Source: a virus
Lineage: Duplodnaviria > Caudoviricetes
Direction: 5' to 3' (one strand)
Virus record (IMG/VR): IMGVR_UViG_3300037400_002094
Coordinates: 29,893 to 93,892 of that record
Length of the DNA stretch: 64,000 nucleotides
Shown: positions 7,390 to 35,259 of the stretch, in pieces
Layout: every line of letters starts with the position of its first letter
Numbering within the stretch: the stretch's first letter is position 1
The notes under the pieces: generated by a model
Seen by the model: the letters and a program-made list of their open reading frames with translations, nothing else
Told to the model about the DNA's origin: nothing
Databases searched by the model: none
Position numbers and translations under genes: made by a program

Positions 7390-7404
7390 ATAAGTTGAGC
7401 TAAA

Positions 7405-7436
7405 TTTGTTTTTTTAACTTTTTTTATATATCTTTG
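7405..7436 (+). promoter_or_regulatory. Bacteroidota sigma-A-type promoter
   Basis: TTTG (7405-7408), 20-nt spacer, TATCTTTG (7429-7436); identical over 36 nt to 9963-9998. Confidence 0.85.
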
Positions 7437-7451
7437 CATAAAATTAGTGTT

Positions 7452-9997: not shown

Positions 9998-10060
9998 CAT
10001 TAGAAAACTTTAAGCATGTTTTGACATGTATGTAATAATTTTTTTAACAACATTTTTTTT

Positions 10061-11083: not shown

Positions 11084-11109
11084 AATAACTTAGGTAAATA
11101 TTGTTATGA

Positions 11110-11727
11110 ATGAACAAACTTTTCTTCTATTATGGGAGTATGAATAGTGCAAAATCACTACGACTCCTTACAACAGCATACAATTTTGAAGAAAATGGGC
11201 TTGATATTATGTGCCTTAAGCCATCTGCTGACACCAGGGATGGCGAAGGCATTATAAAGTCCCGTGTAGGGCTTGAAAGGAAGTGCGTGATGGTTGACCC
11301 AGACGTTAACCTCTATAAGGCTATAAAGGACTACAGGAACATCTTGGAGGCGCAATTCCACAACCTTAAGTGGGTGCTCATAGATGAGTGTCAGTTCTTG
11401 ACCGAGAAACAGATTGACGAGCTGTCAGATGTTGTTGATTTCTTGGGAATAAATGTCATGTGCTTTGGACTCAGAACTGATTTCCAGAGTAAGTTGTTCC
11501 CAGCATCGAAGAGGCTGTTTGAACTAGCTGACGAAATTGAAGAGATTAAGTCAACTTGTCCATGTGGTGAGAGAAAGACATCAATCAATGCAAGGTTCGA
11601 TGAGAACGGTGAAATTGTCACTGAGGGAGAACAGATTATGGTGGGTGGAAATGATATATACAAGTCTATATGTAGAAAGTGCTGGAAGAATAAAATAAGG
11701 GATAAGAAATTAAAAGAAAGTGAATAG
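11110..11727 (+). CDS. tdk: Thymidine kinase
   Basis: YGSMNSAKS P-loop, IDECQFL, FGLRTDF, zinc motifs CPCG and CRKC. Confidence 0.95.
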   Translation: MNKLFFYYGSMNSAKSLRLLTTAYNFEENGLDIMCLKPSADTRDGEGIIKSRVGLERKCVMVDPDVNLYKAIKDYRNILEAQFHNLKWVLIDECQFLTEKQIDELSDVVDFLGINVMCFGLRTDFQSKLFPASKRLFELADEIEEIKSTCPCGERKTSINARFDENGEIVTEGEQIMVGGNDIYKSICRKCWKNKIRDKKLKESE

Positions 11728-20322: not shown

Positions 20323-20446
20323 CTTTTCAAATCGACTTCATTTTTACCACACGAGGGTATATTTATTTTAACATTGCAATGGTAAAAAAAAAAAGGTTGA
20401 CCGAAAAGAGAAGAAAATAATTTAATTAAAAAAAGAACTTTTGTTT

Positions 20447-22657
20447 ATGCAAGTAATCAAGCGTGACAAAACAGAAGAATTGTTCCAAATTCAGAAAATT
20501 GAAAGTGCTATTGAAAGGGCGTTTGCATCATGCGGGAAAGAGCCAGATTACAAGGTAATCGACTGTATTAAAAGGATTTACAACATTCAGTCAAACGATA
20601 CAGTACATGTGGAGGACATACAGGATAACGTCGAGAAGTGTCTGATGGAGATTGATAAAGAGGTAGCGAAAGCATACATCATCTACAGATACAATCACAA
20701 GCTGATTCGTGAGAACAAGGACAAGCTGTACAAGGACATTACAAAGAAGCTCTTAGCCACAAATGTGACAAACCAGAACGCCAATGTTGATGAGCATTCC
20801 TTTGGCGGTAGAATGGGCGAAGTAAACAGACTGGTTCTCAAGGACTATGCATTGAAATATTGCATGTCCAGGAAGTCCAGAAACAATCACCTTAATAATG
20901 AGGTCTATATTCATGACCTGGATTCGTATGCTGCTGGAATGCATAACTGTCTCTCAATTCCATTTGATGACCTTCTTGCTAAGGGCTTCAATACGAGACA
21001 GACGGACGTTAGACCAGCAAATAGTATCAATACAGCAATGCAGCTTGTTGCAGTGATTTTCCAGTTACAGAGTTTACAGCAGTTTGGTGGCGTGTCGGCA
21101 ACGCACCTTGACTGGACGATGGTCCCATATGTACGTAAATCATTCTACAAGCATTTCAAGAACGGAGCAAGATATATAGAAGGAGTAAGGGATTTAAGTG
21201 AATTTAATGACTCAATGTCCATAGAGGACGAGAAGTACAAGGAGAGTGGTAACGTATACACATACGCTATTGAACAGACGCAGAAGGAACTGATACAGGC
21301 TGTTGAAGGTATGTATCATAACCTCAATACATTACAGAGCAGAAGCGGAAACCAGCTCCCATTTACATCTATCAACTATGGAACTTGTACACTTCCAGAG
21401 GGAAGAATGGTAATCAAGGCACTTCTTGATGGTTCTATAGATGGAGTTGGAAAACATCATAAGACACCTATTTTCCCATGCGGTATCTTCCAGATGATGC
21501 ATGGTGTAAACAAGGCAGAAGGAGACCCTAACTATGACTTATTCAAGCTTGCCCTCAAGTCTACATCACAGAGATTGTATCCAAACTACGCTAACTGTGA
21601 CTGGACTGGTAACGCAGGCTACGACCCTAACGACCCAAGGACTTATTTCAGCACTATGGGCTGTAGAACCGCCAATGGCTTTGACGTAAACGGTCTTGGT
21701 CAGTTGAAGGACGGTAGAGGTAACATATGCCCTGTTACAGTCATCATGCCTACACTTGCTATGGAGGCTAAGGAAAAGGTTGAGGAGAAGACTATCAAGG
21801 AAGAAAGAAAGTATACCGACGAAGAGGTATTAACCGAGTTCATGAAAATTCTTAACAAAAAGATTGACGAGGCTAAGGACATGCTCATCGAGAGATTCGA
21901 GTGGATATGCAGTCAGTCACCAGCTTCAGCAAGATTCATGTGGGAGAACAGGACTATGGCTGGATATGTACCAGAAGAGGGAATACGTTCAGCATTGAAG
22001 CATGGTACTCTTGCACTTGGACAACTTGGATTAGCTGAGACTCTACAGATTCTCGTACACACAGACCATACCACAGATAAGGGTATGGAAGTTGCAAAGG
22101 AGATTGAGACAATGTTTAGTGAGAAGATTAAGGGTTTCAAAGAGACATATAAGCTCAACTTCGGTGTGTACTTTACACCAGCAGAGAATCTTTGCTACAC
22201 TGCCATGAAGAAGTTCAAGGACAGGTTCGGTGTTATACCTAACGTATCAGACAGGGAGTACTTTACTAACTCAATGCACGTTCCAGTATGGCATGATATG
22301 TCACCGTTCCAGAAGATTGATATCGAAGCACAGCTTACAAGCTTCTCAACAGCAGGATGTATTACTTATGTGGAGCTTCCTAGCACCACTAAGCACAACC
22401 TGGATGCACTGGAGGCAATTGTACTCTATGCTATGGATAAGAACATACCTTATTTTGCAATAAATGTCCCTAACGACACCTGTGAGGACTGCGGATATAC
22501 CGATGAAATGGGCGATACTTGCCCAATGTGCGGAAGTAAGAATATCAGCAGGCTACGTAGAGTTACTGGTTACTTGACTGGAGACTACAAGACGGCCTTC
22601 AACTTCGGTAAGCAAGAAGAGGTCAAGGACAGAGTAAAACATATAAAGGAGTTTTAA
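20447..22657 (+). CDS. nrdD: Anaerobic (class III) ribonucleotide reductase with ATP cone
   Basis: VIKRD ATP cone, YIHDLD...HNC, MGCRT, TPAENL, YFTNS, CEDC...CPMC, glycyl-radical motif RRVTGYL. Confidence 0.97.
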   Translation: MQVIKRDKTEELFQIQKIESAIERAFASCGKEPDYKVIDCIKRIYNIQSNDTVHVEDIQDNVEKCLMEIDKEVAKAYIIYRYNHKLIRENKDKLYKDITKKLLATNVTNQNANVDEHSFGGRMGEVNRLVLKDYALKYCMSRKSRNNHLNNEVYIHDLDSYAAGMHNCLSIPFDDLLAKGFNTRQTDVRPANSINTAMQLVAVIFQLQSLQQFGGVSATHLDWTMVPYVRKSFYKHFKNGARYIEGVRDLSEFNDSMSIEDEKYKESGNVYTYAIEQTQKELIQAVEGMYHNLNTLQSRSGNQLPFTSINYGTCTLPEGRMVIKALLDGSIDGVGKHHKTPIFPCGIFQMMHGVNKAEGDPNYDLFKLALKSTSQRLYPNYANCDWTGNAGYDPNDPRTYFSTMGCRTANGFDVNGLGQLKDGRGNICPVTVIMPTLAMEAKEKVEEKTIKEERKYTDEEVLTEFMKILNKKIDEAKDMLIERFEWICSQSPASARFMWENRTMAGYVPEEGIRSALKHGTLALGQLGLAETLQILVHTDHTTDKGMEVAKEIETMFSEKIKGFKETYKLNFGVYFTPAENLCYTAMKKFKDRFGVIPNVSDREYFTNSMHVPVWHDMSPFQKIDIEAQLTSFSTAGCITYVELPSTTKHNLDALEAIVLYAMDKNIPYFAINVPNDTCEDCGYTDEMGDTCPMCGSKNISRLRRVTGYLTGDYKTAFNFGKQEEVKDRVKHIKEF

Positions 22658-22660
22658 GTT

Positions 22661-23152
22661 ATGAGAGTAAATAAGATAACGTACCCAGAGCTTAGCAACG
22701 GAATTGGATTCAGAATCACCGTGTGGGTTTCTGGGTGCGTCCATCACTGTAAAGGATGCCACAACCCAGAGACCTGGGACTTTAACGGTGGAAGGGAGTT
22801 CACCGATGACGACAAGAAGGAGATATTCAAGCTCCTTACTATACCTTATTTAAAAGGTGTTACTTTTTCTGGGGGAGACCCGCTATGTTCATATGAAGAT
22901 GTTTTATCCTTTGCGAAGGAATTAAAAGAGAAGTTCCCAGATAAGGACATCTGGGTTTATACAGGTTTTAAGTTTGAATATGTAGCAGAACACATGAGTG
23001 AGATTTTGGATTATGTAGATTACATAGTCGATGGTAAGTTTGAAGAAGACAAGAAGAATCTTAGTTTAGCCTTTAGAGGTTCAGAGAACCAAAGGATTTG
23101 GAAAAAGGAAGAGGGAGAGTTCAAAGTAATTAATTTAGATGAAGGTGGTTAG
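22661..23152 (+). CDS. nrdG: Anaerobic RNR activating radical SAM enzyme
   Basis: SGCVHHCKGCHN, SGGDPL, VDGKF, FRGSENQRI; adjacent to nrdD. Confidence 0.96.
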   Translation: MRVNKITYPELSNGIGFRITVWVSGCVHHCKGCHNPETWDFNGGREFTDDDKKEIFKLLTIPYLKGVTFSGGDPLCSYEDVLSFAKELKEKFPDKDIWVYTGFKFEYVAEHMSEILDYVDYIVDGKFEEDKKNLSLAFRGSENQRIWKKEEGEFKVINLDEGG

Positions 23153-23196: not shown

Positions 23197-24345
23197 ATGA
23201 TATTGACAGAAGATATAAAGGGCCTATTCCGTACCGTGAGGACGATGCTTGGTGCTCCAATACGTATTGTACAGCTTGAGGACGAGCAGTTGTGTGACCT
23301 CCTGGACGTAGCAATAGGCGACTACTCTGAGAAGGTTCAGAACTGGGTAATAGAGACGCAGTGGCTCAACATGCAGACGAAGGGACAGATACAGTTCCAG
23401 AATGCAAGTGAGCTGGCATACGCCATGACTGTACGTACAATGGACTGGTCTAGGGACTATTCATATTGGTTCTCACGTGAGGTAGGACTACAGCAGAGAG
23501 GACACTACGAACTCAAGAAAGACTTCTTCCAGGTTGAGAGAGGAAAGCAGGTATACGTAATTCCAGCGGGACGTGAGATAAATAAGGTGATGTATGTTAC
23601 CCCATCAACAACTAAAGCAGCCCTCTACGGCAACTTAGGAACGCTTGATACTGGTATTGCTGGAGGCTTCGGACAATACGGTAACATGGGTAATGGTATG
23701 GGTCTTACAGGATTCTATGTAGGCTCAGCCTATGACACAGCTCTTATGGCTGCTGACTTAAAATACAAGAACTCATTGCTTAGAGGTGACTTGGCTTATA
23801 AGGTAACGGCAGGACCTGATGGAACACACCTTGTACACCTTCTTTCCACTCCAGGTTCTCCAAATATGGTCGGTGGTGTTGCTGCTGACGATACTTGGGG
23901 ATGGAACAGGTATGCAAGCTGCTACGTATGGTACACATATTATGATGTGAGTGGCGCTGATGATGCTACAGAGTGTATGCTGGAGAATAAGGATGATGTT
24001 ATCATCACCCCAGACCAAGTGCCATTGGATAAAATGAGGTACGAGCTTATGAATAACCCTACACAGCAGATTATAAGACGCTTACTTGTTGCAGAGGCTA
24101 AGATATTGCTTGGTATCATTAGGGGTACGTACAGCGGTGCTGTGAAGATTCCAGAGGCAGAAATGCAGATGGATTACAATATGCTACTTGAGCAGGGCAA
24201 GTCAGAGAAGGAAACGGTGCTTAATGAGTTGAAGGAGAGGCTGGAGAGGATGCTTCCTTGGAACTTGATTAAGAACCAGGTTGAAATGAGTGATAACCTT
24301 ATAAAGGTACTTAAGAACAAACCACTTGGACTGTTTGTGAGATAA
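23197..24345 (+). CDS. Probable neck / head-tail adaptor protein (T4 gp13-like)
   Basis: LGAPIRIVQLEDEQL...AKILLGIIRGTYSG...LLEQGKSEKE...L pattern of gp13-like neck proteins. Confidence 0.65.
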   Translation: MILTEDIKGLFRTVRTMLGAPIRIVQLEDEQLCDLLDVAIGDYSEKVQNWVIETQWLNMQTKGQIQFQNASELAYAMTVRTMDWSRDYSYWFSREVGLQQRGHYELKKDFFQVERGKQVYVIPAGREINKVMYVTPSTTKAALYGNLGTLDTGIAGGFGQYGNMGNGMGLTGFYVGSAYDTALMAADLKYKNSLLRGDLAYKVTAGPDGTHLVHLLSTPGSPNMVGGVAADDTWGWNRYASCYVWYTYYDVSGADDATECMLENKDDVIITPDQVPLDKMRYELMNNPTQQIIRRLLVAEAKILLGIIRGTYSGAVKIPEAEMQMDYNMLLEQGKSEKETVLNELKERLERMLPWNLIKNQVEMSDNLIKVLKNKPLGLFVR

Positions 24346-24368
24346 AATTTTAAAAAAATATTAAAAAT

Positions 24369-24413
24369 AATCGGGATAAAATTTGTTTATCTCGATTTTT
24401 TTATATATCTTTG
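24369..24413 (+). promoter_or_regulatory. Terminator hairpin fused to a sigma-A promoter (cassette 2)
   Basis: AATCGGGATAAA-ATTTG-TTTATCTCGATT, T-tract, TATCTTTG at 24406-24413 (spacer 20). Confidence 0.8.
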
Positions 24414-24436
24414 CGTATATAAACGTTTTTTAACAT

Positions 24437-26152
24437 ATGCAAAATAAAACAACAGAAGAATTTATAAAAGAAGTTGAAGAAAGATTTCCAGGTGAAGTTT
24501 CTTTTGAGAAAACTGTCTATACTGGCGCATATTCACCGTTAATAATGACTTGTTCTAAACATGGTGATATAACAGTCGTCCCGCATAACGTCTTGAAAAA
24601 TAATGCTGTTTGCGCTTGTCCTAAATGTGGAAGGGAAAAAGGTAACAATAATTCTAAACTAACAAGAGGTGGCACTAAAGTAAAATTTTTAGAGCGTTTA
24701 TATAAACGTTTTCCTAACATTAAATATGATTTTTCAGAAGCTAAATATATTAATAGTAAAACTCACATGAAAGTTATATGTCATGAAAAGGATTGTAATG
24801 GTGTTGAACACGGTGCTTGGTTCATAAAACCAAGTAATTTATATACTGGCTACGGTTGTCCTAAATGTGGAAATGAAAAAAGCACCCAAGAACGTAGAAT
24901 GTCTTATGAAGATTACTGTAAATTGGTATCAGAAAAATATGGCGATATATATGAGGTTGATGAAAATTCGTATCACGATAAAAGTAGTTCAATAAAAATT
25001 CGTTGTAAAAAACACAATACTTATTTTATAGCAAACAGTAGGGAGTTTCCAAAATGTAATTCACACAAATGTCCAGAGTGTATAAAGGAGGAAATAGAAG
25101 AATATTCTAGTGCTACTAGAGATACAAATATTATAGAAGATAACGGTGTGTGGAAAAACGATTCTATTAATTTTAATGAAGAGGTGTGGGTTGATGTTTT
25201 GGGATTTGAAGGGCAATATCAATGCAGTAGTGAAGGTAGATTTAAGAATATAAGTGTTAAAAATAAGAATGGAGAAAAAGCTAGAGACAGACTAATACGT
25301 GTTAGTTTTGCAAACCGTTTAGGTACAGTGTGTTTAGGGGGAAAACTTTATTCTGCTAGCAGAAAGATATATGAAAGTTTTCATAAGATTAAACTACCTT
25401 CTGGATATACTCATACAATAGACCATATAGATAATAATGTTAGAAACAACAGAATATCTAATCTGAGATTAGGTGGCTCAATACGTGAGAATATGCTTAA
25501 CAATCATAAAACTCGTGCGAAATTATCTGCAAGATGTGGTGCTATTGGTGTAACACCTATCTTTGATTTTGATGACTTACCAGGAGAAAAATGGGTTGAT
25601 GCAATTGGGTATGAGAATTTGTACTCTGTATCTAATCTTGGAAGGGTTATGGCTAAAGAACGAACGCTAATTGAAAAAAATAGAAACGTAAAGAGAGTTA
25701 AAAGAAAGCATCTTATGAGACAATGTATCAAATATGGACAATATTACACATTGGGACTTATAGATAGTAACGGAAATCACAAAACACATTACACTCATAA
25801 GTTGGTATATGAAAGTTTTAATGGCAGAGTAAAGGATGGTAATCAAATTGACCATATTGATTCTAACCCCTTGAATAATAAATTAGAGAATCTTAGAGAA
25901 GTAACGCCACTAGAAAACGTTAATAACTCAAACACTAGGAAAAAAAGGAAGTCTCCAGATACACATGCTGGAGTATTAGTAAAAAAGTTGGATTTACATA
26001 ATAATGTTATAGTCACATATATGTCTATCAGAGAGGCTGCTAGACAAAATAATGTTGCTGTTACATCTATGTATAAATGGATTAGTGGCAAGATTGACCA
26101 AAAGAGAAATCGCCTTAAGGGATATTATTTCAAGGTTGAGGAGAATATTTAA
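24437..26152 (+). mobile_element. Free-standing HNH homing endonuclease gene: zinc-ribbon repeats, 2 x NUMOD4-HNH, NUMOD1-like tail
   Basis: CSKH...CPKC-type modules; EVWVDVLGFEGQYQCSSEGR...IDHIDNNVRNNRISNL and EKWVDAIGYENLYSVSNLGRV...IDHIDSNPLNNKLENL; YMSIREAAR; visibly more AT-rich than its neighbours. Confidence 0.85.
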
Positions 26153-26160
26153 AAAACGTT

Positions 26161-26208
26161 AAAAATCGGGATTATATTTGGTAGTCTCGATTTTTTTAGC
26201 TATCTTTG
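26161..26208 (+). promoter_or_regulatory. Terminator hairpin fused to a sigma-A promoter (cassette 3)
   Basis: AAAAATCGGGATTAT-ATTTG-GTAGTCTCGATTTTT, TATCTTTG at 26201-26208 (spacer 20). Confidence 0.8.
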
Positions 26209-26230
26209 CACACAAAAAAGGAGAAATAAT

Positions 26231-26407
26231 ATGTGTAAGTTTTGTGAAGGCAAGAAAACCATTGGTAGAGAAGGCCGTAAGATTTTTATGAATGAATCTG
26301 GACAACTTGTATACCTTGGAGAGCACACCATATTTGGTGATGTCATTGGTAAGGTTAAGTTCTGTCCAGAGTGCGGTAAAACAATAAAAGAAAATAAGGA
26401 AGGATAA
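26231..26407 (+). CDS. Small zinc-ribbon protein (not in the ORF track)
   Basis: 58 aa, MCKFCEG...KFCPECGK; first gene after cassette 3. Confidence 0.75.
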   Translation: MCKFCEGKKTIGREGRKIFMNESGQLVYLGEHTIFGDVIGKVKFCPECGKTIKENKEG

Positions 26408-26411
26408 TAAT

Positions 26412-26738
26412 ATGACTGGTATTGAAATTGTATTGTGGATTGTATTATGGATTATTGGTATTATAGGTACACTAGTCGTTTTATATTATGTCAATAATAA
26501 GGTGACATTGGCTAATGCGGTTTGTGCAATATTATTCTGGTGGATTATATTACCAATATTTTTCATAGCAGGCGTAGCATTTGTAATTTCCTGGCTTTTC
26601 ACAACGGCTAATGATATTGTCCTGGTGGAGAGAGGCGACTGGTGGCTTTCCAAGGAAGAGAGGAAGATATTAAGGGAGGAAAAGAAAAAGGAGAAGAAAG
26701 GAAAAGGTTTAACATTAAATAACATTTTAAGAAAATGA
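26412..26738 (+). CDS. Small membrane protein
   Basis: Two hydrophobic segments and a Lys-rich C-terminus; ATGA overlap with the TBDR gene. Confidence 0.7.
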   Translation: MTGIEIVLWIVLWIIGIIGTLVVLYYVNNKVTLANAVCAILFWWIILPIFFIAGVAFVISWLFTTANDIVLVERGDWWLSKEERKILREEKKKEKKGKGLTLNNILRK

Positions 26739-28777
26739 AAAAGTTTATCGGTTTATTTATGTGTCTGGTAATGACAACAATGACCTATGCTGACACAATC
26801 GAGAGTACAGATTCTGTAATTAACCAGACGTTGGACGAGTTCACCGTCACCTCCTTCTATCGGAGTGCTACCCCCATGTTGGGCAGTTCTGTGGACTCTA
26901 AGAACCTTGTTGCCAACAACTACGGTCAAGAGCCTTCTTGGTTGTTTGCCAAGATGCCTTCCATCTTCGCATTCAGCGACAACGGCACTGACTTTGGTTA
27001 CGGCTATTTCCGCATTCGTGGTCTTGACCAGACCCGCATTAATGTAACGCTGGACGGTATGCCTTGGAATGAGGCTGAGGATTTTGGCTGTTACTTCGCT
27101 AATAGTCCCGACATTATGGCAGACGCAGGTACAATTGACGTTGGGCGTGGTACAAGCACCTATAATCCAGGAACTGCATCCTACGGTGGAAGTATCAACA
27201 TCAGCTCTGTAGACCTGTTGAAGAACACCACATCATATGCTGAGTTCGGTGCAGGTAGCTTCGCATCAGCCAAGACATCTGTAAACATCAACACAGGACT
27301 CATGGGTAAGTGGGCATTACATGTGCGTGGTACATTGTCGCATACTGATGGTTATCGTGAGCACAGCCAGAACAACTCACAATCACTTGGTTTCAAGCTG
27401 GGTTACTTCATCAATGAAAAGAGTTGGGTTGACCTCTTATCTATTACAGGCTACCATACCAATGGACAGGGTTATATCGGCGTTTCTATGGAAGACCTTG
27501 AGAAGAACCGACACCTCAATGGCTGTAGCAAGGACGAAGATGACAATTTCTTCCAGACCGTCAATAAGCTGACGTATAACAGTTGGCTTGGCGAGAAGAT
27601 TCTGTTTACCTCTTCACTCTACTGGAACATGCTGATGGGTGAGTATCGCTTTGACCTTGATAACTATATGATTCGCCTCTGTGACGAGCCTATGGAGACT
27701 GGTATGCTATACAACTACGGTCTTAAGCAGCACATGTACGGTGGCAATGCAGCAGCACGTTACTACATCAATGATGGCTCTATTACCATTGGTACTAATA
27801 TCTACAAGTTCGAGCGTGAGCACTACCTTGATGACCGTAACATCGACAAGGCACGTAACATCGACCCTGCTGAGTACTATGGCAATCGTGGTCACAAGAT
27901 GGACTATGAGGTGTTCTTGAATGCTAAAAAGTCATTCGGAAACTTTACATTGTCAGCCAATGCACAGTATCGTGGCGTTAACTTCTGGTATCGTGACCTT
28001 ATGAACCCGCTGGTTGAGTTTGACGAGGACACCAAGTGGAATTTCCTTAACTTCGGTGCTGATGTGAGCTACAAGATTGGTCGTCACAATGAGGTTTACT
28101 TGAAGTACGCACGAGCCAACCGTGAACCGACACGAACCGATATGTTCGGTGGTAATGAGTGGTATCCTGGTGCGCTTACAACGACTGATGCTGAGGTTTC
28201 CAATGACGTTGAAATTGGCTGGAACATTGCTACGAAGCGTCTTAACGCCAACTTGAACCTGTTTGGCATGTTCTTCGAGAATGAGCGTTCATTGACTGGT
28301 ACAATCGGTCTGAACGGTCTCCCAGAGCACGAGAAGGCAGACAATAGTCATCGTATGGGTATCGAGTTGTATGTCGATTATAATCCGTTTGCAAAATTGC
28401 ATCTTATCAACAATTCTTCATATTCAAATAATAAGGTTAAGACTGACACCTATGGCACTAAGACTCATGTTCTTACTCCAGGATGTACGTTTAACCAGGA
28501 TATTGAATGGAGAGATAAGATATGGACATTTGGTATAGGATATAAGTATCGTAGCCATATGTACCTTGATATGGCTAATACTGAACGAATTCCAGACCTG
28601 TGGCAGCTTAATCTCTATGGTAGTGTTACCCTTGGTAAGTTCATCGTCAGTGGGCATGTTAATAACATTACCAATCGTGACAATATGCAGACAGGTGTGC
28701 TAACCAATACCAACAAGGCTCGTTTCATGCCTGATGCACCAACGAATGTGTTTACTTCAATTAAATATATGTTCTAA
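26735..28777 (+). CDS. TonB-dependent outer-membrane receptor (Bacteroidota vitamin-uptake type)
   Basis: Signal peptide MKKFIGLFMCLVMTTMTYA; TonB-box-like LDEFTVT; plug RIRGLDQTRINVTLDGMP...GRG...YGGSIN; REPT; VNNITN; C-terminal IKYMF beta-signal. Confidence 0.9.
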   Translation: MKKFIGLFMCLVMTTMTYADTIESTDSVINQTLDEFTVTSFYRSATPMLGSSVDSKNLVANNYGQEPSWLFAKMPSIFAFSDNGTDFGYGYFRIRGLDQTRINVTLDGMPWNEAEDFGCYFANSPDIMADAGTIDVGRGTSTYNPGTASYGGSINISSVDLLKNTTSYAEFGAGSFASAKTSVNINTGLMGKWALHVRGTLSHTDGYREHSQNNSQSLGFKLGYFINEKSWVDLLSITGYHTNGQGYIGVSMEDLEKNRHLNGCSKDEDDNFFQTVNKLTYNSWLGEKILFTSSLYWNMLMGEYRFDLDNYMIRLCDEPMETGMLYNYGLKQHMYGGNAAARYYINDGSITIGTNIYKFEREHYLDDRNIDKARNIDPAEYYGNRGHKMDYEVFLNAKKSFGNFTLSANAQYRGVNFWYRDLMNPLVEFDEDTKWNFLNFGADVSYKIGRHNEVYLKYARANREPTRTDMFGGNEWYPGALTTTDAEVSNDVEIGWNIATKRLNANLNLFGMFFENERSLTGTIGLNGLPEHEKADNSHRMGIELYVDYNPFAKLHLINNSSYSNNKVKTDTYGTKTHVLTPGCTFNQDIEWRDKIWTFGIGYKYRSHMYLDMANTERIPDLWQLNLYGSVTLGKFIVSGHVNNITNRDNMQTGVLTNTNKARFMPDAPTNVFTSIKYMF

Positions 28778-28779
28778 TT

Positions 28780-29178
28780 ATGGATAAGTTATATATAGAT
28801 GATACACATCCTGGGTTTCTTAGAATGAAAAAAGATGATGGAACTGTTGTAAGTCATTTGGATTATAAATGTTATATCAAAAGTGAAACAAAAGAAGTAT
28901 ATTCAGTATCTATCGATTTACTAGAAACCAAAGAAGGGTATAGAAATAATGGATATGCCACAAAATTGGTTAACCATTTAATCGAAAAGTACAGAGGGGT
29001 AGACATAGAACTATATTGTATACCTCTTGTTCAAAAAGATGGTTTTGACCAGGCGCAAATAGAATTATTATTGTTTTATAAACACCTTGGATTCAAAGAA
29101 TTTAAAGAATATGAAGGACGTGTATTTGGTGGAATCACCAAAAAATATTTTAAAATGGTAAGAAAAGCAGTTAATTAG
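28780..29178 (+). CDS. GNAT-family acetyltransferase
   Basis: IDLLETKEGYRNNGYATKLV (motif A) and FYKHLGF. Confidence 0.8.
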   Translation: MDKLYIDDTHPGFLRMKKDDGTVVSHLDYKCYIKSETKEVYSVSIDLLETKEGYRNNGYATKLVNHLIEKYRGVDIELYCIPLVQKDGFDQAQIELLLFYKHLGFKEFKEYEGRVFGGITKKYFKMVRKAVN

Positions 29179-29182
29179 TATT

Positions 29183-29231
29183 AAAAAATGAGGTAATCGT
29201 TTGGTTATCTCATTTTTTTTATGTAAATTTG
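29183..29231 (+). promoter_or_regulatory. Terminator hairpin fused to a sigma-A promoter (cassette 4)
   Basis: AAAAAATGAGGTAAT...GTTATCTCATTTTTT with TTTG at 29200-29203 and TAAATTTG at 29224-29231 (spacer 20). Confidence 0.75.
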
Positions 29232-29256
29232 CAGGTGAAATAAAATTTAATTAATT

Positions 29257-29754
29257 ATGTTAGTTTGGGCTTTTAATAAAAATAATAAATCATTTAAATT
29301 GTGCGGAACTTATGAAACAATGTTTCATACAGATAGAAAAGGTGATGAGAAAAGTCGTGTTTATATAAATGAATGCGATTATGAAATACCTAAGGATGTT
29401 GTGGAGAGTCATTTTTCTGATTTACAGTTTAATCCTTTTACAGAGTACAAATTCATTGTTAATAAAGAGAAATACGATGAATATAATTTCTGGGGAAGCT
29501 TTCCATATGGTGGTTTTTTTGTAAGTGCTTGTGTTGTTAATAATGATAACGAAATAATCAAGGACGGATTTTACCCCCAATCAAATAGTTGTGAAATACG
29601 GATTTTAGAGGAATTTTTTAATTGTATCGGATATGATAGCGTTATTGGTAGGTTTAATTGGCGAGAAGTAAAAGAATATGAGGAAAATGGTTATAAACTA
29701 GTTTTATGGTATGGGGCAGCTAAAAATAATGCAATGTTTGTAAAAGAAAGGTAA
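29257..29754 (+). CDS. Hypothetical protein (AT-rich)
   Basis: 165-aa ORF, first after cassette 4. Confidence 0.65.
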   Translation: MLVWAFNKNNKSFKLCGTYETMFHTDRKGDEKSRVYINECDYEIPKDVVESHFSDLQFNPFTEYKFIVNKEKYDEYNFWGSFPYGGFFVSACVVNNDNEIIKDGFYPQSNSCEIRILEEFFNCIGYDSVIGRFNWREVKEYEENGYKLVLWYGAAKNNAMFVKER

Positions 29755-29756
29755 AA

Positions 29757-30842
29757 ATGAAAATAGGAATTTGTTTCGGTGGGTATTGCCCAATGCATCG
29801 TGGACACCTCGATGCCATCATGAGGGCTAAGAAGGAGAATGACAAGGCATTTGTCATCGTCTGCGGGTACGACAATGAGGAACGTGCTGGCAACATCAAC
29901 ATGACGTTGAAGGAGCGCACGGCAATTGTACGTAAAATATTCGAGAAGGACGAGCTTATTACTGTATTGTCCATTAACGACACAGAGCTTGGTATTGACG
30001 AGAGTATGTGTGATAACAACTGGATTGTATGGCAAGAGAAGGTTAAAGAACTAGTTGGTTTTGACAAATACGATTTGTATACTAAATATACTTGGTATGT
30101 TGCAGAGCCTTATTACAAGGAAATGCTGGAGAAACATAACCTTCTTAATGCTCAAACCACACTGATTGATAAGGTTGTGCCTGTAAGTGGTACTGCCATC
30201 CGTGAGAATCCATTGAAGTACTGGAAGTACATTGTTAGGGAGTACCGAAACAACCTGTGTCATAACATCCTTATTACTGGCACTGCTTCTGAGGGTAAGA
30301 CAACCCTAGTGCGTGACATTTCCACGTACTTTGGTATTGACCACTCTGAGGAGTATGGAAGGGATGATTTGCTTGCCAAGTGTAAGACCGACACAGACCT
30401 TACGGCAGATGATTTCATAGACTTCCTTATTGGTCAGAGTGTGGACGTATGTAAGCGTGTAAGGAACAACGACCAGGGTGTGTTTATCTCTGATACTGAC
30501 AACCTTGTTACGCTGATGTATGCACTGGCTTATACAGAAGACCCAAACGTGCCTATCACTAAGGAAGAGTACGATACAAAGGTGCTTCCAGCAGCTAAGT
30601 CACTTGCAGGTCGTGTGAAGTGGGATAAGATTTTCCTGCTGCCTCCAAAGAATAAGTTTGTGGACGATGGCAGTCGCTACATGAAGCAGTCGTCTATCGA
30701 CGAGCGTATTGCCAACTTCAACAAGCTGGTTGAGCTGCTTAAGGAGTTTGGTCTCTGGGAGAAGGTGAAGATTCTTGACGGCGATTTCCTGTCAAATTTC
30801 AACAAGTTAAAGGATTACATTAACAGTTTGTATAATGAGTAA
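29757..30842 (+). CDS. nadR: Bifunctional NMN adenylyltransferase / ribosylnicotinamide kinase (NadR without HTH)
   Basis: FGGYCPMHRGH (HxGH nucleotidyltransferase), VSGTAIRENP, P-loop GTASEGKTT, EEYGR, DTD, FVDDGSR. Confidence 0.9.
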   Translation: MKIGICFGGYCPMHRGHLDAIMRAKKENDKAFVIVCGYDNEERAGNINMTLKERTAIVRKIFEKDELITVLSINDTELGIDESMCDNNWIVWQEKVKELVGFDKYDLYTKYTWYVAEPYYKEMLEKHNLLNAQTTLIDKVVPVSGTAIRENPLKYWKYIVREYRNNLCHNILITGTASEGKTTLVRDISTYFGIDHSEEYGRDDLLAKCKTDTDLTADDFIDFLIGQSVDVCKRVRNNDQGVFISDTDNLVTLMYALAYTEDPNVPITKEEYDTKVLPAAKSLAGRVKWDKIFLLPPKNKFVDDGSRYMKQSSIDERIANFNKLVELLKEFGLWEKVKILDGDFLSNFNKLKDYINSLYNE

Positions 30843-31500
30843 GAGTTTTTCGGACATAGTGAGGCTTGAGGGTACTCATGCTGGCGTGAATTTCAGCGTG
30901 TTCTTCATCCTTCTTGGCGTGTTGACACAGGGACTTGCATTCAAATTCAGTGGCGGTAGTGAGTTGTCATTGATTAGCGGATGCCTTGGTATCATATCCG
31001 TTGTATTGTGCAGTCAGAGAAAGATTTCATTCTATATCTTTGGTTTTGCACAGCTTATCACATATGTCATATTATGTGTGAATGAGAAACTGTATGGAGA
31101 AATAGCCGAGAATGCTTTTTATTTCGTCACAATGCTCTTCGGATTGTTCCATTGGATAAAGCACTACAATGAGAATGAAATAGCCGTAAAGACGAGAAAA
31201 ATGACTCACTTGCAGAATGTGTGGGTATTCATAGCTACTGTGTTCGGAACGCTTATGTTGTACACTGGATTAATGAGAACTGATGACAGCCAGCCACTAA
31301 TGGATGCAATTACCACTCTTCCAGCGTTTGTAGCCCAAATCCTTATGATATTCAGATTCAAGGAGAGTTGGTTCTACTGGTTTATAATTGATGTTGGTAG
31401 TATTATAATGTGGAGTATTGCTGGTGACTGGTGTATGGTATTGCAGTTTGTATTCTGGACTATCAATTGTATCTATGGCTATTATAAGTGGAGTGATTGA
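30835..31500 (+). CDS. pnuC: Nicotinamide riboside transporter, PnuC family
   Basis: Multiple TM segments; LYGE...YF...GLFHW, PLMDAITT, AQILM...ESWFYWFIID, NCIYGYYKW; overlaps the nadR stop. Confidence 0.9.
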   Translation: MSKSFSDIVRLEGTHAGVNFSVFFILLGVLTQGLAFKFSGGSELSLISGCLGIISVVLCSQRKISFYIFGFAQLITYVILCVNEKLYGEIAENAFYFVTMLFGLFHWIKHYNENEIAVKTRKMTHLQNVWVFIATVFGTLMLYTGLMRTDDSQPLMDAITTLPAFVAQILMIFRFKESWFYWFIIDVGSIIMWSIAGDWCMVLQFVFWTINCIYGYYKWSD

Positions 31501-31502
31501 CT

Positions 31503-32366
31503 ATGATTAAGTATAATGTAAACACATGTGACCAGATTGAGAATGAATTGCAGATTCATTTTACAAAGCTGTGTCCTAATAAATGCCCATTCTGTGTAGA
31601 TGCGTTGAATAAGGGACTCCATAATGCGATTAAGAGACCAGATGTGAATGCCATCTATCAGAGGGTATATGAGAACAGGGGTAAGATTAACTCTATCTGT
31701 ATTAGTGGTGGAGAGCCTATGCTTTTCATAGATGATGTGTTGGATTTAATTCGTAAGGTTAAGTCCAGCACCAACCTTAAGGTATATGTCATTACATCAG
31801 TGCCAGAACAGTGTTACCAGTACAAGTATGCGTTCTACAATATCCTTGATGAGTGTGATGGCATGGCAATATCGCCTCAGCACTATAATGAGGAGATTGG
31901 AGACCAGATACGTGGTCATAAGTCAACATTCGACAGACAGGGATTCTATCGCAGCATCGAGGACAAGAGCAAGATTACCATGAACATCAATATGGTGAAG
32001 CCATACTTGTGTGACAAGGACGAAATCTGCAAGTGTATCGAGCATTATAACCAGATGGGTTTCAAGAACATCAAGCTGGTTGAGCTGTTCGACAGACCAG
32101 ATATGTTTGTTTCGTTTGAGAAGACGTTTGGTGTGAAACTAAAGTCACCGTTTGCACACGGTTGTAAGACCGAGTTTGATATTACGCCATATATACCTTC
32201 GTATGATGGCAAGTTCATCCTAAAGAGAACGTGTTTCCTTGTGAACAAGTGTGTTCACGCTACCTTGGCTGATACACTGAAGGCTGCTACCAGGAACATC
32301 TTTGGGAAGGAATACTACTTTGGTGTCGTCTATGAGGATGGAAGTCTTCATCCTTATTGGATTTGA
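31503..32366 (+). CDS. Radical SAM enzyme of unknown function
   Basis: CPNKCPFC (CxxxCxxC), ISGGEP; a few further C-terminal Cys; starts 2 nt after the pnuC stop. Confidence 0.88.
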   Translation: MIKYNVNTCDQIENELQIHFTKLCPNKCPFCVDALNKGLHNAIKRPDVNAIYQRVYENRGKINSICISGGEPMLFIDDVLDLIRKVKSSTNLKVYVITSVPEQCYQYKYAFYNILDECDGMAISPQHYNEEIGDQIRGHKSTFDRQGFYRSIEDKSKITMNINMVKPYLCDKDEICKCIEHYNQMGFKNIKLVELFDRPDMFVSFEKTFGVKLKSPFAHGCKTEFDITPYIPSYDGKFILKRTCFLVNKCVHATLADTLKAATRNIFGKEYYFGVVYEDGSLHPYWI

Positions 32367-32370
32367 CGGA

Positions 32371-32380
32371 TATTTATAAA
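32371..32380 (+). promoter_or_regulatory. Putative late promoter
   Basis: TATTTATAAA between the rSAM stop and the peptide ATG. Confidence 0.5.
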
Positions 32381-32398
32381 CATAAAACATATAAGGTT

Positions 32399-32734
32399 AT
32401 GGGAAAACTTATTCTAATTGAGGAAGGCGAGCTTAAGAAAATGATAAGCGAAGCTGTCACCAATGCGGTTGATGGTATCACTAAGAAGATTACGACTCGT
32501 GCAGCAAGGGCAAACAGAAACATGCTGTTTGTGCCTCCTGTTGTTAATCCTTTTGACGATGATGACGATGATGACTGTGGTTACAGTTGTGGTAGTAGTC
32601 GTTCTGTAGGAGGATGCGGTTCTGATAGCCATTATGACTACAGCTATGGTGGTTGTGGGTCTGGCGGTGGGGGTTGTGGCTCTTCATCACCTTCATACGG
32701 TGGTTGTGGTTATAATGATAGTGGCCGTTGTTAA
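32399..32734 (+). CDS. Gly/Cys/Ser/Tyr-repeat peptide; candidate RiPP precursor or metal-binding peptide
   Basis: 111 aa from ATG 32399: helical leader, D7 tract, core CGYSCG...VGGCGS...YGGCGSGGGGCGS...YGGCGY...GRC (7 Cys). Confidence 0.7.
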   Translation: MGKLILIEEGELKKMISEAVTNAVDGITKKITTRAARANRNMLFVPPVVNPFDDDDDDDCGYSCGSSRSVGGCGSDSHYDYSYGGCGSGGGGCGSSSPSYGGCGYNDSGRC

Positions 32735-32752
32735 GAAATTATTTTACTCTAT

Positions 32753-32782
32753 AAAATGCAGTCAGAAATGGCTGCATTTTTT
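32753..32782 (+). terminator. Intrinsic terminator closing the accessory island
   Basis: AAAATGCAGTCA-GAAA-TGGCTGCATTTT plus TT. Confidence 0.85.
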
Positions 32783-32843
32783 GTTTATATTACATCGAAA
32801 AAAGTTAAATTTTATATACTTATAGGTAATAATTTATGATATA

Positions 32844-33233
32844 ATGGCTAAGAAACAGTTTTTTGGTGTTAAGTTCCCATTTTTGACAGATAATGGGAGA
32901 CATTTTTACGTTGCTGCGAACGAAACCATCGCAGACAAGGTAAAGAGTCAGCTCATGCATATTGTGTTTACACCTAAGGGTCAGAGAATTAGGAATCCAG
33001 AGTTTGGAACAGACCTCATCAAGTTCATATTCGACCAGAATGATGGTACTACTTGGGAGGCTGTTAAGACTGAGGTTAGTGAATCAGTTGCAAGATGGTC
33101 TAATAACCTGTCTTTGAAGGAGATAAAAGTAGTGAAGAGTGAGGAAGACGAATCACAGGTATTCGTTAGGATTGACTATAGCGTTACAGAAGGTAACAAG
33201 GTGACTAATGACAGTATAGTAGTAGAGATATAA
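32844..33233 (+). CDS. Baseplate wedge subunit (T4 gp25 / GPW-like)
   Basis: FTPKGQRIRNPEFGTDL motif; preceded by the variant late motif TACTTATAG. Confidence 0.85.
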   Translation: MAKKQFFGVKFPFLTDNGRHFYVAANETIADKVKSQLMHIVFTPKGQRIRNPEFGTDLIKFIFDQNDGTTWEAVKTEVSESVARWSNNLSLKEIKVVKSEEDESQVFVRIDYSVTEGNKVTNDSIVVEI

Positions 33234-33234
33234 A

Positions 33235-35259
33235 ATGGAAAAGAAGATTAATTATCTGAGCAGGGATTTTGCCAGTATAAAGGAAGAACTTATAAAATTC
33301 AGTAATCAGTACTACCCAGAGGTGGCTGATGACTTTGCTGATTCCAGCGTTGGTGCGTGGTTTATAGACCTAGTATCAGCAGTTGGTGATGACCTTAGTT
33401 ACCATACCGACAGGATGTTCCAGGAGACGAACATCAACAGCGCAAGCTTGAAGAGTACACTTCTCAACCTTGCTAGGGCTAATGGCGTGAAAGTACCAGG
33501 TCCTAAGGCATCCATGTGCGAGGTTGAACTCAGTTGTGTCCTTCCTGTTAATACAAATCCTAGCATAGCCGAGCCAGACTGGAACTATGCCCCTATATTA
33601 CAGAGGACCAGTATTGTTTCTGCTGGTGACATAAATTTTGAACTCAGTGAGGATGTAAATTTCTTTAACCAGTTCAATGAGGATGGCATATCTAACAGAA
33701 AAATCATGCCTGTAAGGGATACGAATGGAAATGTTACTGGATATAACGTTACAAAATCTACCATAGTAGTGAACGGAAATACAAAGGTGTACAAGAAGGT
33801 AATATATTCATCTGACCTCAAGCCTTTTATGGAAATCGTACTACCAGAAGTAAACGTAATGAACATTGAATCAATTATATTCAAAGAGACCAGTGATGTT
33901 TCAACCTCACCTAGAATATATGAGTATTATATTGATGCTGAGGAGTTTAGACTTTCAAAGGATGCTGTAATGACATACAGGTACTTCGAGGTTGACTCAC
34001 TTGCAGACCAGTATAGGTTTGGTATGATATCATCATTCCAGGTTGAGGGTAACAGGGTAATAAACAACATATACAGTCCGCATATCTATGACGATTACAC
34101 TGAAAAACAGTATGATTCTAGTGGTAACGTAATAAGCGAGAGTACAAGTAGGTATTATCGTGGAAAGTGGAAGCCACTGACCCAGAAGTTCATAACAGAG
34201 TTCACCGATAATGGATATCTTAAGATTATATTCGGTGCTGGAAATGGGTACGGTGTAGTACCAGAGAAAGAGGACCCTTATGCTGACTATGTTGCATCCA
34301 ATATTATAAACAACGATATGCTTGGCGTACTTCCAAAGGAAGGTTGGACGATGTATGTTCTTTATCGTGTCGGAGGAGGTGCTTCATCAAACATAGGACC
34401 TGGTGCAATCAACACCATAGCACTTGCAAACGTTGACTGGGGTGGAAATACTGGAAACACCAATGGTAGTAAGAGAGGTGACGTGATTTCTTCACTCGCT
34501 GTAACTAACATTTCAACAGCATTGGCTGGTAAGGATGCCCCATCAAATGAGGAGATTAAGTATCTTATAAAATATAATACCACAGCACAGAACAGAGCGG
34601 TAACGGTTAAGGATTACAAGGTTAAGCTAATGCAGATGCCACCTAAGTTCGGTGCCCCATTCAGAAACACAGTAATTGAGGCCAATAATAAGATTGAGAT
34701 GAGTTTCCTTGGTGTTAACTCAATCGGAAAGCTTGATTCTTATCTCCCTCAGACGCTTGTTGAGAACATCCTGGAGTATATGTCCAACTACAAGCAGATA
34801 AACGATTACATCGAAGTTAAAAGCGGTAGAATCTACAATATCGGTGTTGAACTTGAGCTGTTCATTGACAAGAACTATAATGTCGGTGATGTAATACAGA
34901 ATGTAATCAACACTGTGTATGCTTATTTCAACATAGATGACCATGATATGGGTGATGACATATTCGTTGGAGACCTTGAGAAGACTATAACACTCACAGA
35001 CGGTGTTATAAGCCTCATAGACCTTCGAATACACAAGATATGGAATGGCAGCTACAGTGCGGATAAATGCCCTCTCCCAGAGCTTGTAAGGAACAGTTCG
35101 TGTGACGGCATAAAGGAGAGCAGCTTCAAGATTGAGGACGCTGATGTGGCAGAGATTGACCTTGAGAAGATTGACAGGGTGCTGTACGGAGATTATAATT
35201 CAATGTACGAGATTAAGAACCCTACCATTGACATACAGGTTAAGTGTAAAATTAGATAA
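33235..35259 (+). CDS. Baseplate wedge protein (T4 gp6 / baseplate J-like)
   Basis: INYLSRDFASIK...DLVSAVGDDLSYHTD; IIFGAG; YRVGGG; AQNRAVTVKDY. Confidence 0.85.
   Translation: MEKKINYLSRDFASIKEELIKFSNQYYPEVADDFADSSVGAWFIDLVSAVGDDLSYHTDRMFQETNINSASLKSTLLNLARANGVKVPGPKASMCEVELSCVLPVNTNPSIAEPDWNYAPILQRTSIVSAGDINFELSEDVNFFNQFNEDGISNRKIMPVRDTNGNVTGYNVTKSTIVVNGNTKVYKKVIYSSDLKPFMEIVLPEVNVMNIESIIFKETSDVSTSPRIYEYYIDAEEFRLSKDAVMTYRYFEVDSLADQYRFGMISSFQVEGNRVINNIYSPHIYDDYTEKQYDSSGNVISESTSRYYRGKWKPLTQKFITEFTDNGYLKIIFGAGNGYGVVPEKEDPYADYVASNIINNDMLGVLPKEGWTMYVLYRVGGGASSNIGPGAINTIALANVDWGGNTGNTNGSKRGDVISSLAVTNISTALAGKDAPSNEEIKYLIKYNTTAQNRAVTVKDYKVKLMQMPPKFGAPFRNTVIEANNKIEMSFLGVNSIGKLDSYLPQTLVENILEYMSNYKQINDYIEVKSGRIYNIGVELELFIDKNYNVGDVIQNVINTVYAYFNIDDHDMGDDIFVGDLEKTITLTDGVISLIDLRIHKIWNGSYSADKCPLPELVRNSSCDGIKESSFKIEDADVAEIDLEKIDRVLYGDYNSMYEIKNPTIDIQVKCKIR

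Follow-up and report, generated by a model that had tools for sequence, protein, structure and literature searches.

Why would a phage carry an outer-membrane transporter beside genes for the salvage of nicotinamide adenine dinucleotide (NAD+)? This question is raised by a window of 64,000 nt (positions 29,893 to 93,892 of the IMG/VR record IMGVR_UViG_3300037400_002094), in which genes for a TonB-dependent transporter (TBDT), NadR, and PnuC lie between window positions 26735 and 31500 (the TBDT-nadR-pnuC region). An original prediction made from the sequence had suggested that these proteins bring an NAD+ precursor such as nicotinamide riboside (NR) across both membranes of the host. We found that this TBDT belongs to a family that accompanies NadR and/or PnuC in huge phages and in Bacteroidota. 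Together, the three proteins probably constitute a salvage line that carries an NAD+ precursor across the cell envelope.

Linkage of the transporter with NadR and PnuC in phages and bacteria

The source record is a 93.9-kb IMG/VR viral contig with a CheckV completeness of about one-third, and the window is a fragment of a Lak-like rumen megaphage. Its phage genes, identified with PHROGs and Pfam, encode a UvsX-like recombinase, a DnaB helicase, an exonuclease, and gp25-like and other baseplate wedge proteins, and its open reading frames (ORFs) reach 2,367 amino acids (aa). The best tblastn matches of the TBDT in a phage database were to Prevotella Lak megaphages (39-40% identity), followed by LR745206, LR756501, and LR756502, which are recorded as "uncultured phage" sequences of 635-735 kb (29-31% identity). 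Close relatives of the window were contigs from gut metagenomes of cattle and sheep, drawn from 13 studies.

We analyzed the TBDT neighborhood in 61 phage loci, comprising those of Lak-A1, Lak-B4, LR756501, LR756502, and LR745206, two Logan contigs, 53 IMG/VR loci on contigs of 13-554 kb, and L023, a phage-like locus from a metagenome-assembled genome (MAG) labeled Clostridia; 60 of the 61 were untruncated. The order TBDT-NadR-PnuC was present in 19 loci and TBDT-PnuC-NadR in 23, with TBDT-NadR in a further 14 and TBDT-PnuC in 1. Neither partner was found in 3 loci, and 1 was truncated. Thus, the TBDT lies beside NadR and/or PnuC in 57 of the 60 untruncated phage loci. Some of the loci scored as TBDT-NadR were short of flanking sequence, as the same Lak-B contigs reveal pnuC when 8 kb of flank is included.

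Bacterial relatives were collected by searching 185,579 species genomes with a profile of 40 diverse TBDT homologues and keeping the best 80 loci. We set aside L023, which was counted among the phage loci, and L024, which lies on an ambiguous Bacteroidales contig. The 78 remaining loci, 75 of them informative and 3 on truncated contigs, include those of Chitinophaga, Hymenobacter, Mucilaginibacter, Zobellia, Flavobacterium, Dysgonomonas, Porphyromonas, Capnocytophaga, and Saprospiraceae. TBDT-PnuC-NadR was the arrangement in 54 of the 78, including 51 in which gaps were at most 20 nt, usually with overlapping stop and start codons; 19 had TBDT-NadR, and 2 had neither partner. NadR therefore accompanies the TBDT in 73 of the 75 informative bacterial loci. 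These frequencies support the functional tie between the TBDT and nadR-pnuC on which the original prediction depended, and they speak decisively against the lack of co-occurrence that the prediction had named as grounds for its rejection. No further neighbor was broadly conserved across the 78 bacterial loci. NAMPT (NadV), a Nudix protein, and phosphoribosyl pyrophosphate synthetase (Prs) flank the cluster in Mucilaginibacter, Niastella, and Paraflavitalea, where it constitutes an NAD-salvage island.

Comparison of the partner proteins revealed that the two gene orders match two protein classes, with no intermediates among the phage loci. In the class containing the window, Lak, and other gut or rumen phages, NadR and PnuC scored at least 330 and 169 bits, respectively, to the window proteins and at most 62 bits to the proteins of the Zobellia operon; environmental huge phages had the reverse pattern. 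The window NadR scored 157 bits to Lactococcus lactis NadR versus a median of 51 bits to NadR proteins of bacterial operons. Conversely, the Zobellia operon NadR scored 96-116 bits to the NadR proteins of Escherichia coli and Haemophilus influenzae and to PDB entry 9x6f, which we take to be the structure of Bas30_86 from the phage pathway NARP3 (see below), versus 52 bits to L. lactis NadR. In quick trees with Shimodaira-Hasegawa-like approximate likelihood ratio test support, in which L004 and L024 drew long-branch warnings, the branch leading to the gut-phage clade measured about 2.5 substitutions per site for NadR and about 3 for PnuC versus about 0.6-0.8 for the TBDT.

The TBDT itself behaves as a single family. 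The window TBDT scored a median of 330 bits to 53 operon TBDTs versus 150 bits for the next paralogue, and the family boundary was sharp, with orthologues at E values of 1e-99 to 1e-104 and the next TBDT paralogue in the same genome at 8e-44. In the TBDT tree, the phage clade is sister to the bacterial operon clade. These scores identify the window TBDT as an orthologue of the TBDTs of the Bacteroidota TBDT-PnuC-NadR operons. The Lak-like lineage thus appears to pair the same TBDT family with a non-orthologous NadR-PnuC in reversed order, which could reflect either displacement of the original partners or independent assembly. As for the origin of the window-type NadR-PnuC, the closest solved structure, that of L. 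lactis NadR, is the sole pointer away from Bacteroidota. The presence of one TBDT family beside two NadR-PnuC subfamilies argues that selection kept the three functions together. Values of dN/dS between the window and related phage contigs (0.07-0.14 for the TBDT, 0.04-0.36 for NadR, and 0.08 for PnuC) show all three module genes to be under purifying selection.

We also asked how often likely hosts possess such a route. In a sample of 401 genomes from the order of a Prevotella sp. genome, an order that we took as Bacteroidales, a TBDT orthologue (E ≤ 1e-70) was found in 5 genomes and a full-length NadR in 5, with 4 genomes holding both. Across the phylum, 2 of 201 sampled genomes had a TBDT orthologue, one of them being the anchor genome already known as a carrier. 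The TBDT family is sparse in Bacteroidota, and the rarity of the route in the likely host order indicates that the phage would add a capability rather than duplicate an operon that hosts commonly have. Separately, weaker matches to the NadR model occurred in 214 of the 401 genomes. All of those listed cover the kinase (AAA_28) half alone, with no adenylyltransferase half, in ORFs of roughly 150-360 aa (most of about 180 aa), which may represent a separate, common Bacteroidales protein family.

Some TBDTs were near-identical across differently labeled families, as in L029 and L033 (Dysgonomonas and a "Prevotella" MAG) and in L038 and L057 (a Porphyromonas MAG and Ferruginibacter). Such near-identity points either to MAG contigs placed in the wrong bin or to a very recent transfer, and the taxon labels of MAGs need caution.

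Fusion of a bacterial operon to phage DNA through mis-assembly or mis-binning would produce the window as an artefact, and the source record is indeed a metagenomic fragment with some related contigs mis-binned into bacterial MAGs, as in the case of L023. However, several viral contigs of independent origin and complete Lak genomes share this gene order, with NrdD/NrdG and baseplate genes on its flanks, and GC content and strand bias are even across the region. The junctions are bridged by independent runs: contigs from other rumen or gut runs span the TBDT and the block from nadR to a downstream radical SAM gene, and one X7 contig connects the TBDT with nadR through a different spacer. We regard the chance of such an artefact as close to nil. 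The chimeric assembly that the original prediction had allowed for is likewise opposed by recurrence of the gene order on independent IMG/VR contigs from other samples.

A predicted NAD+-precursor route and its alternatives

Examination of the TBDT found the features of an intact transporter described in the original prediction. The N terminus resembles a signal peptide (MKKFIGLFMCLVMTTMTYA/DT), a Plug domain matches PF07715 at residues 52-152 (E=8e-8; Pfam), and the C terminus (...YMF) ends in Phe, as do 23 of 40 family members. A TonB-box-like L33-D-E-F-T-V follows the family consensus L-x-E-[VI]-x-[IV], the positions of which are conserved in 29-38 of the 40 members. An AlphaFold2 model (predicted local distance difference test score, 87; predicted template modeling [TM] score, 0.86) matched PqqU and FecA over its full length in Foldseek (TM score, 0.79; probability, 1.0), with scores of 0.73-0.79 when YncD and FhuA were included. 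Judged by this fold match rather than by an exact strand count, the protein is predicted to form a barrel of the 22-strand type that encloses a plug. The barrel profile PF00593 fell below threshold on the window TBDT and above threshold on homologues of about 48% identity, and PHROGs, NCBIfam, and PADLOC returned nothing specific for this family, which is not curated. A SusC/RagA-type assignment was rejected, as the 680-aa protein has no Pfam or NCBIfam SusC/RagA match and no N-terminal extension, with the plug starting from about residue 50. No SusD-family match was present among the flanking ORFs scanned with Pfam.

The window NadR contains CTP_transf_like (PF01467) and AAA_28 (PF13521; E=2e-19) domains. 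The motifs HRGH (HxGH), SGTAIR, and Walker A GTASEGKTT align with L. lactis NadR (6gye; E=8e-45), in agreement with the HxGH adenylyltransferase and P-loop kinase originally described. The protein lacks a helix-turn-helix (HTH) domain and begins directly with the nicotinamide mononucleotide (NMN) adenylyltransferase domain. By these alignments, it is predicted to be of the bifunctional NMN adenylyltransferase/ribosylnicotinamide kinase type. PnuC matched PF04973 (E=9e-42), the NR-transporter equivalog model TIGR01528 (119 bits versus a cutoff of 42), and the solved Neisseria mucosa PnuC (4qtn; E=4e-24 over residues 19-220). A different form of NadR was seen in the Flavihumibacter loci L071, L072, and L076 (about 10018-11604), where a 528-aa NadR with about 200 extra C-terminal residues lacking a Pfam match directly follows the TBDT and no separate PnuC is present.

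From the computed anatomy of the genes, the families to which they belong, their linkage, the purifying selection on them, and their distribution, we infer the substrate, transport, dependence on host TonB, and purpose of this module as follows. The phage TBDT would be exported and inserted into the host outer membrane, where host TonB-ExbBD would power the periplasmic entry of NR or of a similar pyridine nucleoside or nucleotide. PnuC would then move NR over the inner membrane, and NadR would phosphorylate NR to NMN and adenylylate NMN to NAD+. The likeliest cargo, given the partner genes, would be NR or an NR precursor, whose TonB-powered uptake would feed PnuC and NadR. The PnuC and NadR steps have been demonstrated for the phage pair NARP3 (PMC13464706); the outer-membrane step is suggested by gene context and by the precedent of OMthi-PnuT, the thiamine route of Bacteroides thetaiotaomicron.

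Reliance on the host for energy is expected because the Lak genomes encode no TonB or ExbB. We found no TonB_C domain in the window record, Lak-A1, Lak-B4, LR756502, or LR745206 and no ExbB in Lak-A1, Lak-B4, LR756501, LR756502, or LR745206. LR756501.1 (735 kb; the sequence behind L004) does encode a TonB C-terminal domain at 470226-470459 (E=5e-23) in a 268-aa ORF, about 42 kb from the TBDT-PnuC-NadR module of this phage. Searches of the 93.9-kb record for LigA, NAMPT, Nudix, and TonB found none, an absence that means little in a record about one-third complete.

PF04973 is common to the thiamine and riboflavin Pnu transporters, and the nearest TBDT paralogue in one Bacteroidales genome precedes a Pnu-family gene without NadR. 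A mis-assigned PnuC in a thiamine-type route analogous to OMthi-PnuT, or in a riboflavin-type route, would be consistent with both facts. Yet the constant partner of the TBDT is NadR and not thiamine pyrophosphokinase (TPK), NAMPT, Prs, and Nudix adjoin some bacterial clusters, PnuC passes the NR-transporter equivalog model, and an Rfam search of window positions 24000-34000 (E ≤ 1) found no riboswitch or other RNA family, including no thiamine pyrophosphate (TPP) or flavin mononucleotide riboswitch. Transport of another vitamin is thus very improbable, and thiamine, which had been raised as a possible substrate, is unlikely on the grounds of the NadR partner, the genes of some clusters, and the lack of a TPP riboswitch. 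The paralogue just mentioned (L169, 3938-6806, G001:C75) encodes a 740-aa TBDT with 26% identity to the window protein. This pair may be a thiamine-type OMthi-PnuT, which would suggest that vitamin TBDT-Pnu pairs are sister systems.

The cargo at the outer membrane could also be larger than NR. Cargo of TBDTs is typically too large or too scarce for porins, and PqqU, the best structural match, imports a cofactor. If the TBDT imported NMN or NAD+ (334-663 Da), periplasmic phosphatases or nucleotidases of the host would have to trim it to NR, as NadN and e(P4) do in Haemophilus. PnuC accepts NR only, which makes such a periplasmic step conceivable. Against this possibility, the neighborhoods of the 78 bacterial loci have no conserved nucleotidase or phosphatase, and the phage loci have none either. 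We consider the larger cargo unlikely, if worth keeping in view.

Alternatively, the TBDT might mainly remodel the host surface through superinfection exclusion, receptor masking, or action as a decoy, with its proximity to nadR-pnuC reflecting inherited synteny and no coupling. TBDTs are common phage receptors, the window TBDT has its own promoter-like motif and terminator, and a preprint raises this idea for transcribed Lak outer-membrane proteins (10.64898/2026.10.24.761521). However, the linkage persists down to 28% TBDT identity and across two gene orders and two NadR/PnuC subfamilies, the TonB box, plug, and family-invariant residues are kept at a dN/dS of about 0.1, and the bacterial orthologues are located in NAD-salvage operons. 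These observations render a mainly surface-directed role quite unlikely.

Several points weigh against the salvage route. The substrate of the TBDT is assigned from gene context, and the need of a molecule as small as NR (255 Da) for an active outer-membrane transporter is assumed by comparison with thiamine and B12 uptake in Bacteroidota. The two bacterial loci whose TBDTs come closest to the phage clade (L170 and L024; 41% identity) lack a full operon, and both lack PnuC. In L170 (G336:C11; TBDT at 5989-7983), the gene lies between dnaA and tgt without an adjacent PnuC or NadR, and in L024 (7881-9908), the TBDT frame is split (521 and 146 aa) and only the kinase domain was detected in a neighboring NadR-like gene. 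The window NadR scored under the NCBIfam curated cutoffs (195 versus 341 bits for TIGR01526 and 138 versus 201 for NF005988), from which we regard it as a divergent HTH-less member. In the window phage, two unrelated ORFs and a putative terminator-promoter junction part the TBDT from nadR. Indications of expression are weak for this phage, coming from contigs of one RNA library (run X24), possibly containing DNA, that cover parts of the TBDT, nadR, pnuC, and radical SAM genes. Finally, the route requires that a phage barrel protein be assembled in time and in useful amounts during infection.

The purpose of the route could be either NAD+ supply for a very large replication program or a NARP3-like recovery from NAD+-depleting defense. 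Supply is a possible purpose given that, in L001, a gene for an NAD+-dependent DNA ligase (LigA domains; 5656-7830) lies immediately upstream of TBDT-NadR-PnuC, which places an NAD+ consumer beside supply genes. The joint proposal, that this TBDT family is the NR gate of Bacteroidota and the third part of a trans-envelope NARP3-type pathway by which huge phages act in Bacteroidales hosts, stands at about an even chance in our estimation. If it is correct, infected Bacteroidales hosts, normally without this route, would draw NAD+ precursors from the gut lumen, and such import would sustain megaphage replication and/or override NAD+-depleting immunity. With the route all but absent from the sampled genomes of the likely host order, infection by the phage may alter how infected rumen and gut Bacteroidales use a shared pool of NAD precursors. 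The proposal also provides a testable substrate for an uncharacterized TBDT family and would add vitamin B3 to the outer-membrane uptake of B1 and B12 in Bacteroidota. The occurrence of one TBDT family beside two NadR-PnuC subfamilies offers a natural experiment on selection for the three-part combination.

Gene map, transcription signals, and neighboring genes

All genes of the module region lie on the plus strand in one series, with neighbors either overlapping slightly or separated by very short gaps (Table 1). The TBDT, NadR, and PnuC ORFs have the boundaries given in the original prediction, including the overlap of pnuC with nadR. That account overlooked the GNAT gene and the 165-aa ORF between the TBDT and nadR and the radical SAM gene overlapping the end of pnuC.

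Table 1. Features of the TBDT-nadR-pnuC region and its surroundings, in window coordinates
Feature	Position	Strand	Basis or remark
NrdG, activase of NrdD	22661-23152		
Two TAnnTTTG (Bacteroidetes-type -7) motifs after a T-rich stretch	26173 and 26201, within 26173..26208	+	Motif match
58-aa ORF with two CxxC pairs, zinc-ribbon-like	26231..26407	+	
108-aa predicted membrane protein; stop overlaps TBDT start by 4 nt	26412..26738	+	
TBDT, 680 aa	26735..28777	+	Pfam, AlphaFold2, Foldseek, family alignment
GNAT-family acetyltransferase, 132 aa	28780..29178	+	Pfam
Hairpin ATGAGGTAA / TTATCTCAT and T-run (29188-29221), then TAnnTTTG-type TAAATTTG at 29224	29188..29231	+	
165-aa ORF	29257..29754	+	
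NadR, 361 aa	29757..30842	+	Pfam, NCBIfam, 6gye alignment
PnuC, 221 aa; 8-nt overlap with nadR	30835..31500	+	Pfam, NCBIfam, 4qtn
Radical SAM enzyme (Cx3Cx2C, GGEP); 4-nt overlap with pnuC	31497..32366	+	
125-aa protein with Asp-rich stretch and Gly/Cys-rich tail	32357..32734	+	
Strong intrinsic-terminator-like hairpin, 12-bp stem and T-run	32753..32780	+	Closes nadR-pnuC-rSAM (radical SAM) unit

The pair of -7-like motifs upstream of the 58-aa ORF likely marks the start of the TBDT transcription unit. Between the GNAT gene and the 165-aa ORF, the hairpin, T-run, and -7-like motif TAAATTTG constitute a putative terminator-promoter junction that separates the TBDT unit from that of nadR. By these motif matches, the TBDT and nadR-pnuC look like two adjacent transcription units, which bears out the separate promoter cassettes of the original prediction. 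TAnnTTTG is not enriched across the window (55 found versus 62 expected); therefore, intergenic placement alone is suggestive. A sigma-70 consensus scan was uninformative for a Bacteroidota-type host.

The stretch that separates nadR from the TBDT varies from phage to phage. It measures 3 nt in L111 and L112, 17 nt in L013, about 980 nt in the window (GNAT and the 165-aa ORF), and about 5-6 kb in Lak, and in an independent rumen assembly it is 743 nt of different sequence. Since relatives keep the TBDT 3-17 nt from nadR, the separate-cassette layout of the window reflects a lineage-specific insertion. The GNAT gene, which none of the related loci examined has, is a lineage-specific insert, and the 165-aa ORF is variably present among relatives, lying upstream of the TBDT in L008. 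The 108-aa membrane protein has no family match in Pfam, PHROGs, or NCBIfam, and its conservation ahead of the TBDT is limited to close relatives (L008, L009, L014, and L020).

Of the 61 phage loci, 20 have a homologue of the radical SAM enzyme (19-91% identity) downstream of the module, and both classes are represented among them; the 78 bacterial loci have none. The loci bearing one include the window, L125, L129-L131, L134, L144, L149, L153, L002, L005, L006, and L023, and in the window the Gly/Cys-tailed 125-aa protein directly follows. This enzyme may be a fourth component of the module, peculiar to phages, or its position may simply be conserved synteny. Sequence searches of the PDB gave no match, a protein atlas gave only viral radical SAM clusters without function, and its fold matched radical SAM proteins in a generic way (viperin, PFL activase, and MoaA; TM scores, 0.5-0.65). 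We rejected it as the NrdD activase, as NrdG is encoded elsewhere in the window (Table 1). A radical SAM gene beside the L170 TBDT is unrelated to that of the window (E=0.2).

Further upstream, the window encodes an anaerobic ribonucleotide reductase, NrdD (738 aa), directly followed by its activase, NrdG (163 aa; Fer4_12, 166 bits), at 20441-23152. A 571-aa HNH/NUMOD4 homing-endonuclease-like gene (24437-26152) lies just upstream of the TBDT unit. Because it is present in the close relatives L008 and L014 and absent in L009 and L010, we regard this gene as a mobile insertion.

Relation to known systems

The presence of a full TBDT in such a phage had been considered unusual, which does not hold given that TBDTs have already been reported in megaphages and in Lak. 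A 2021 study noted the megaphage TBDTs of Mar_Mega_1 and LR745206 as "SusC" and proposed a role in carbohydrate uptake (PMC9723777). The LR745206 TBDT is a homologue of the window TBDT beside PnuC and NadR; in contrast to the "SusC" designation of the megaphage papers, the window protein is not SusC-like. An October 2026 preprint describes a Lak TBDT, HP2985, as transcribed in gut metatranscriptomes, favors receptor masking or superinfection exclusion for phage outer-membrane proteins, and mentions in one sentence NMN-transport genes near 22-strand outer-membrane proteins (10.64898/2026.10.24.761521). In the passages searched in the two reports, NadR is unmentioned, PnuC is unnamed, and no link is made to an NAD route or a bacterial operon. 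An NAD+-precursor route would offer an alternative to the superinfection-exclusion reading of the transcribed Lak TonB receptor.

A study of NAD-jumbo phages (Microbiome 2024) found pnuC in 68 of 174 phages and read nadR-nadM-pnuC clusters as NR salvage (PMC11662467). That study considered no outer-membrane step and left TonB unmentioned (PMC11662467), whereas the module of the window includes a TBDT. Our literature search found no paper on an NR TBDT, on a TBDT linked to PnuC-NadR, or on this TBDT family. New here, within the literature searched, are the linkage of the phage TBDT to NadR and to a bacterial operon and the two architectures.

The analogous route for a vitamin in Bacteroidota is OMthi with PnuT, by which B. 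thetaiotaomicron takes up thiamine across both membranes (PMC5613172, PMC6977713). OMthi-PnuT-TPK handles vitamin B1, with a TPP riboswitch on OMthi and TPK as the trapping enzyme; for the window module, B3 is the proposed vitamin, no riboswitch was found, and NadR would be the trapping enzyme.

The Bacteroidota TBDT-PnuC-NadR operon shares with the window an orthologous TBDT and the same three-part logic. The window NadR and PnuC are of another subfamily (35-51 bits to operon proteins), and their order is NadR-PnuC, whereas the operon has PnuC-NadR translationally coupled to the TBDT. The window also has 980 nt, two ORFs, and the putative terminator-promoter junction between the TBDT and nadR. 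By their protein scores and gene order, environmental huge phages carry the Bacteroidota form of the operon.

The closest phage precedent is NARP3 (Sci Adv 2026), in which the PnuC-like Bas30_87 and the HTH-less NadR-like Bas30_86 of Enterobacteriaceae phages import NR, rebuild NAD+, and defeat Sir2-HerA (PMC13464706). Refilling of NAD+ from outside the cell by phage PnuC and NadR, which had been put forward as a new counter-defense, has thus already been demonstrated as NARP3 (PMC13464706). The window likewise has adjacent, co-oriented genes for an HTH-less NadR and PnuC, with its NadR distant from 9x6f (63 bits). NARP3 consists of two genes with no outer-membrane part and is carried by Enterobacteriaceae phages, whereas the module described here is carried by huge phages of Bacteroidota-type hosts and has the TBDT as a conserved third member. 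If the proposed route is correct, NARP3, described as a cassette of two genes acting at the inner membrane, would be extended to three genes and to both membranes of a Gram-negative host.

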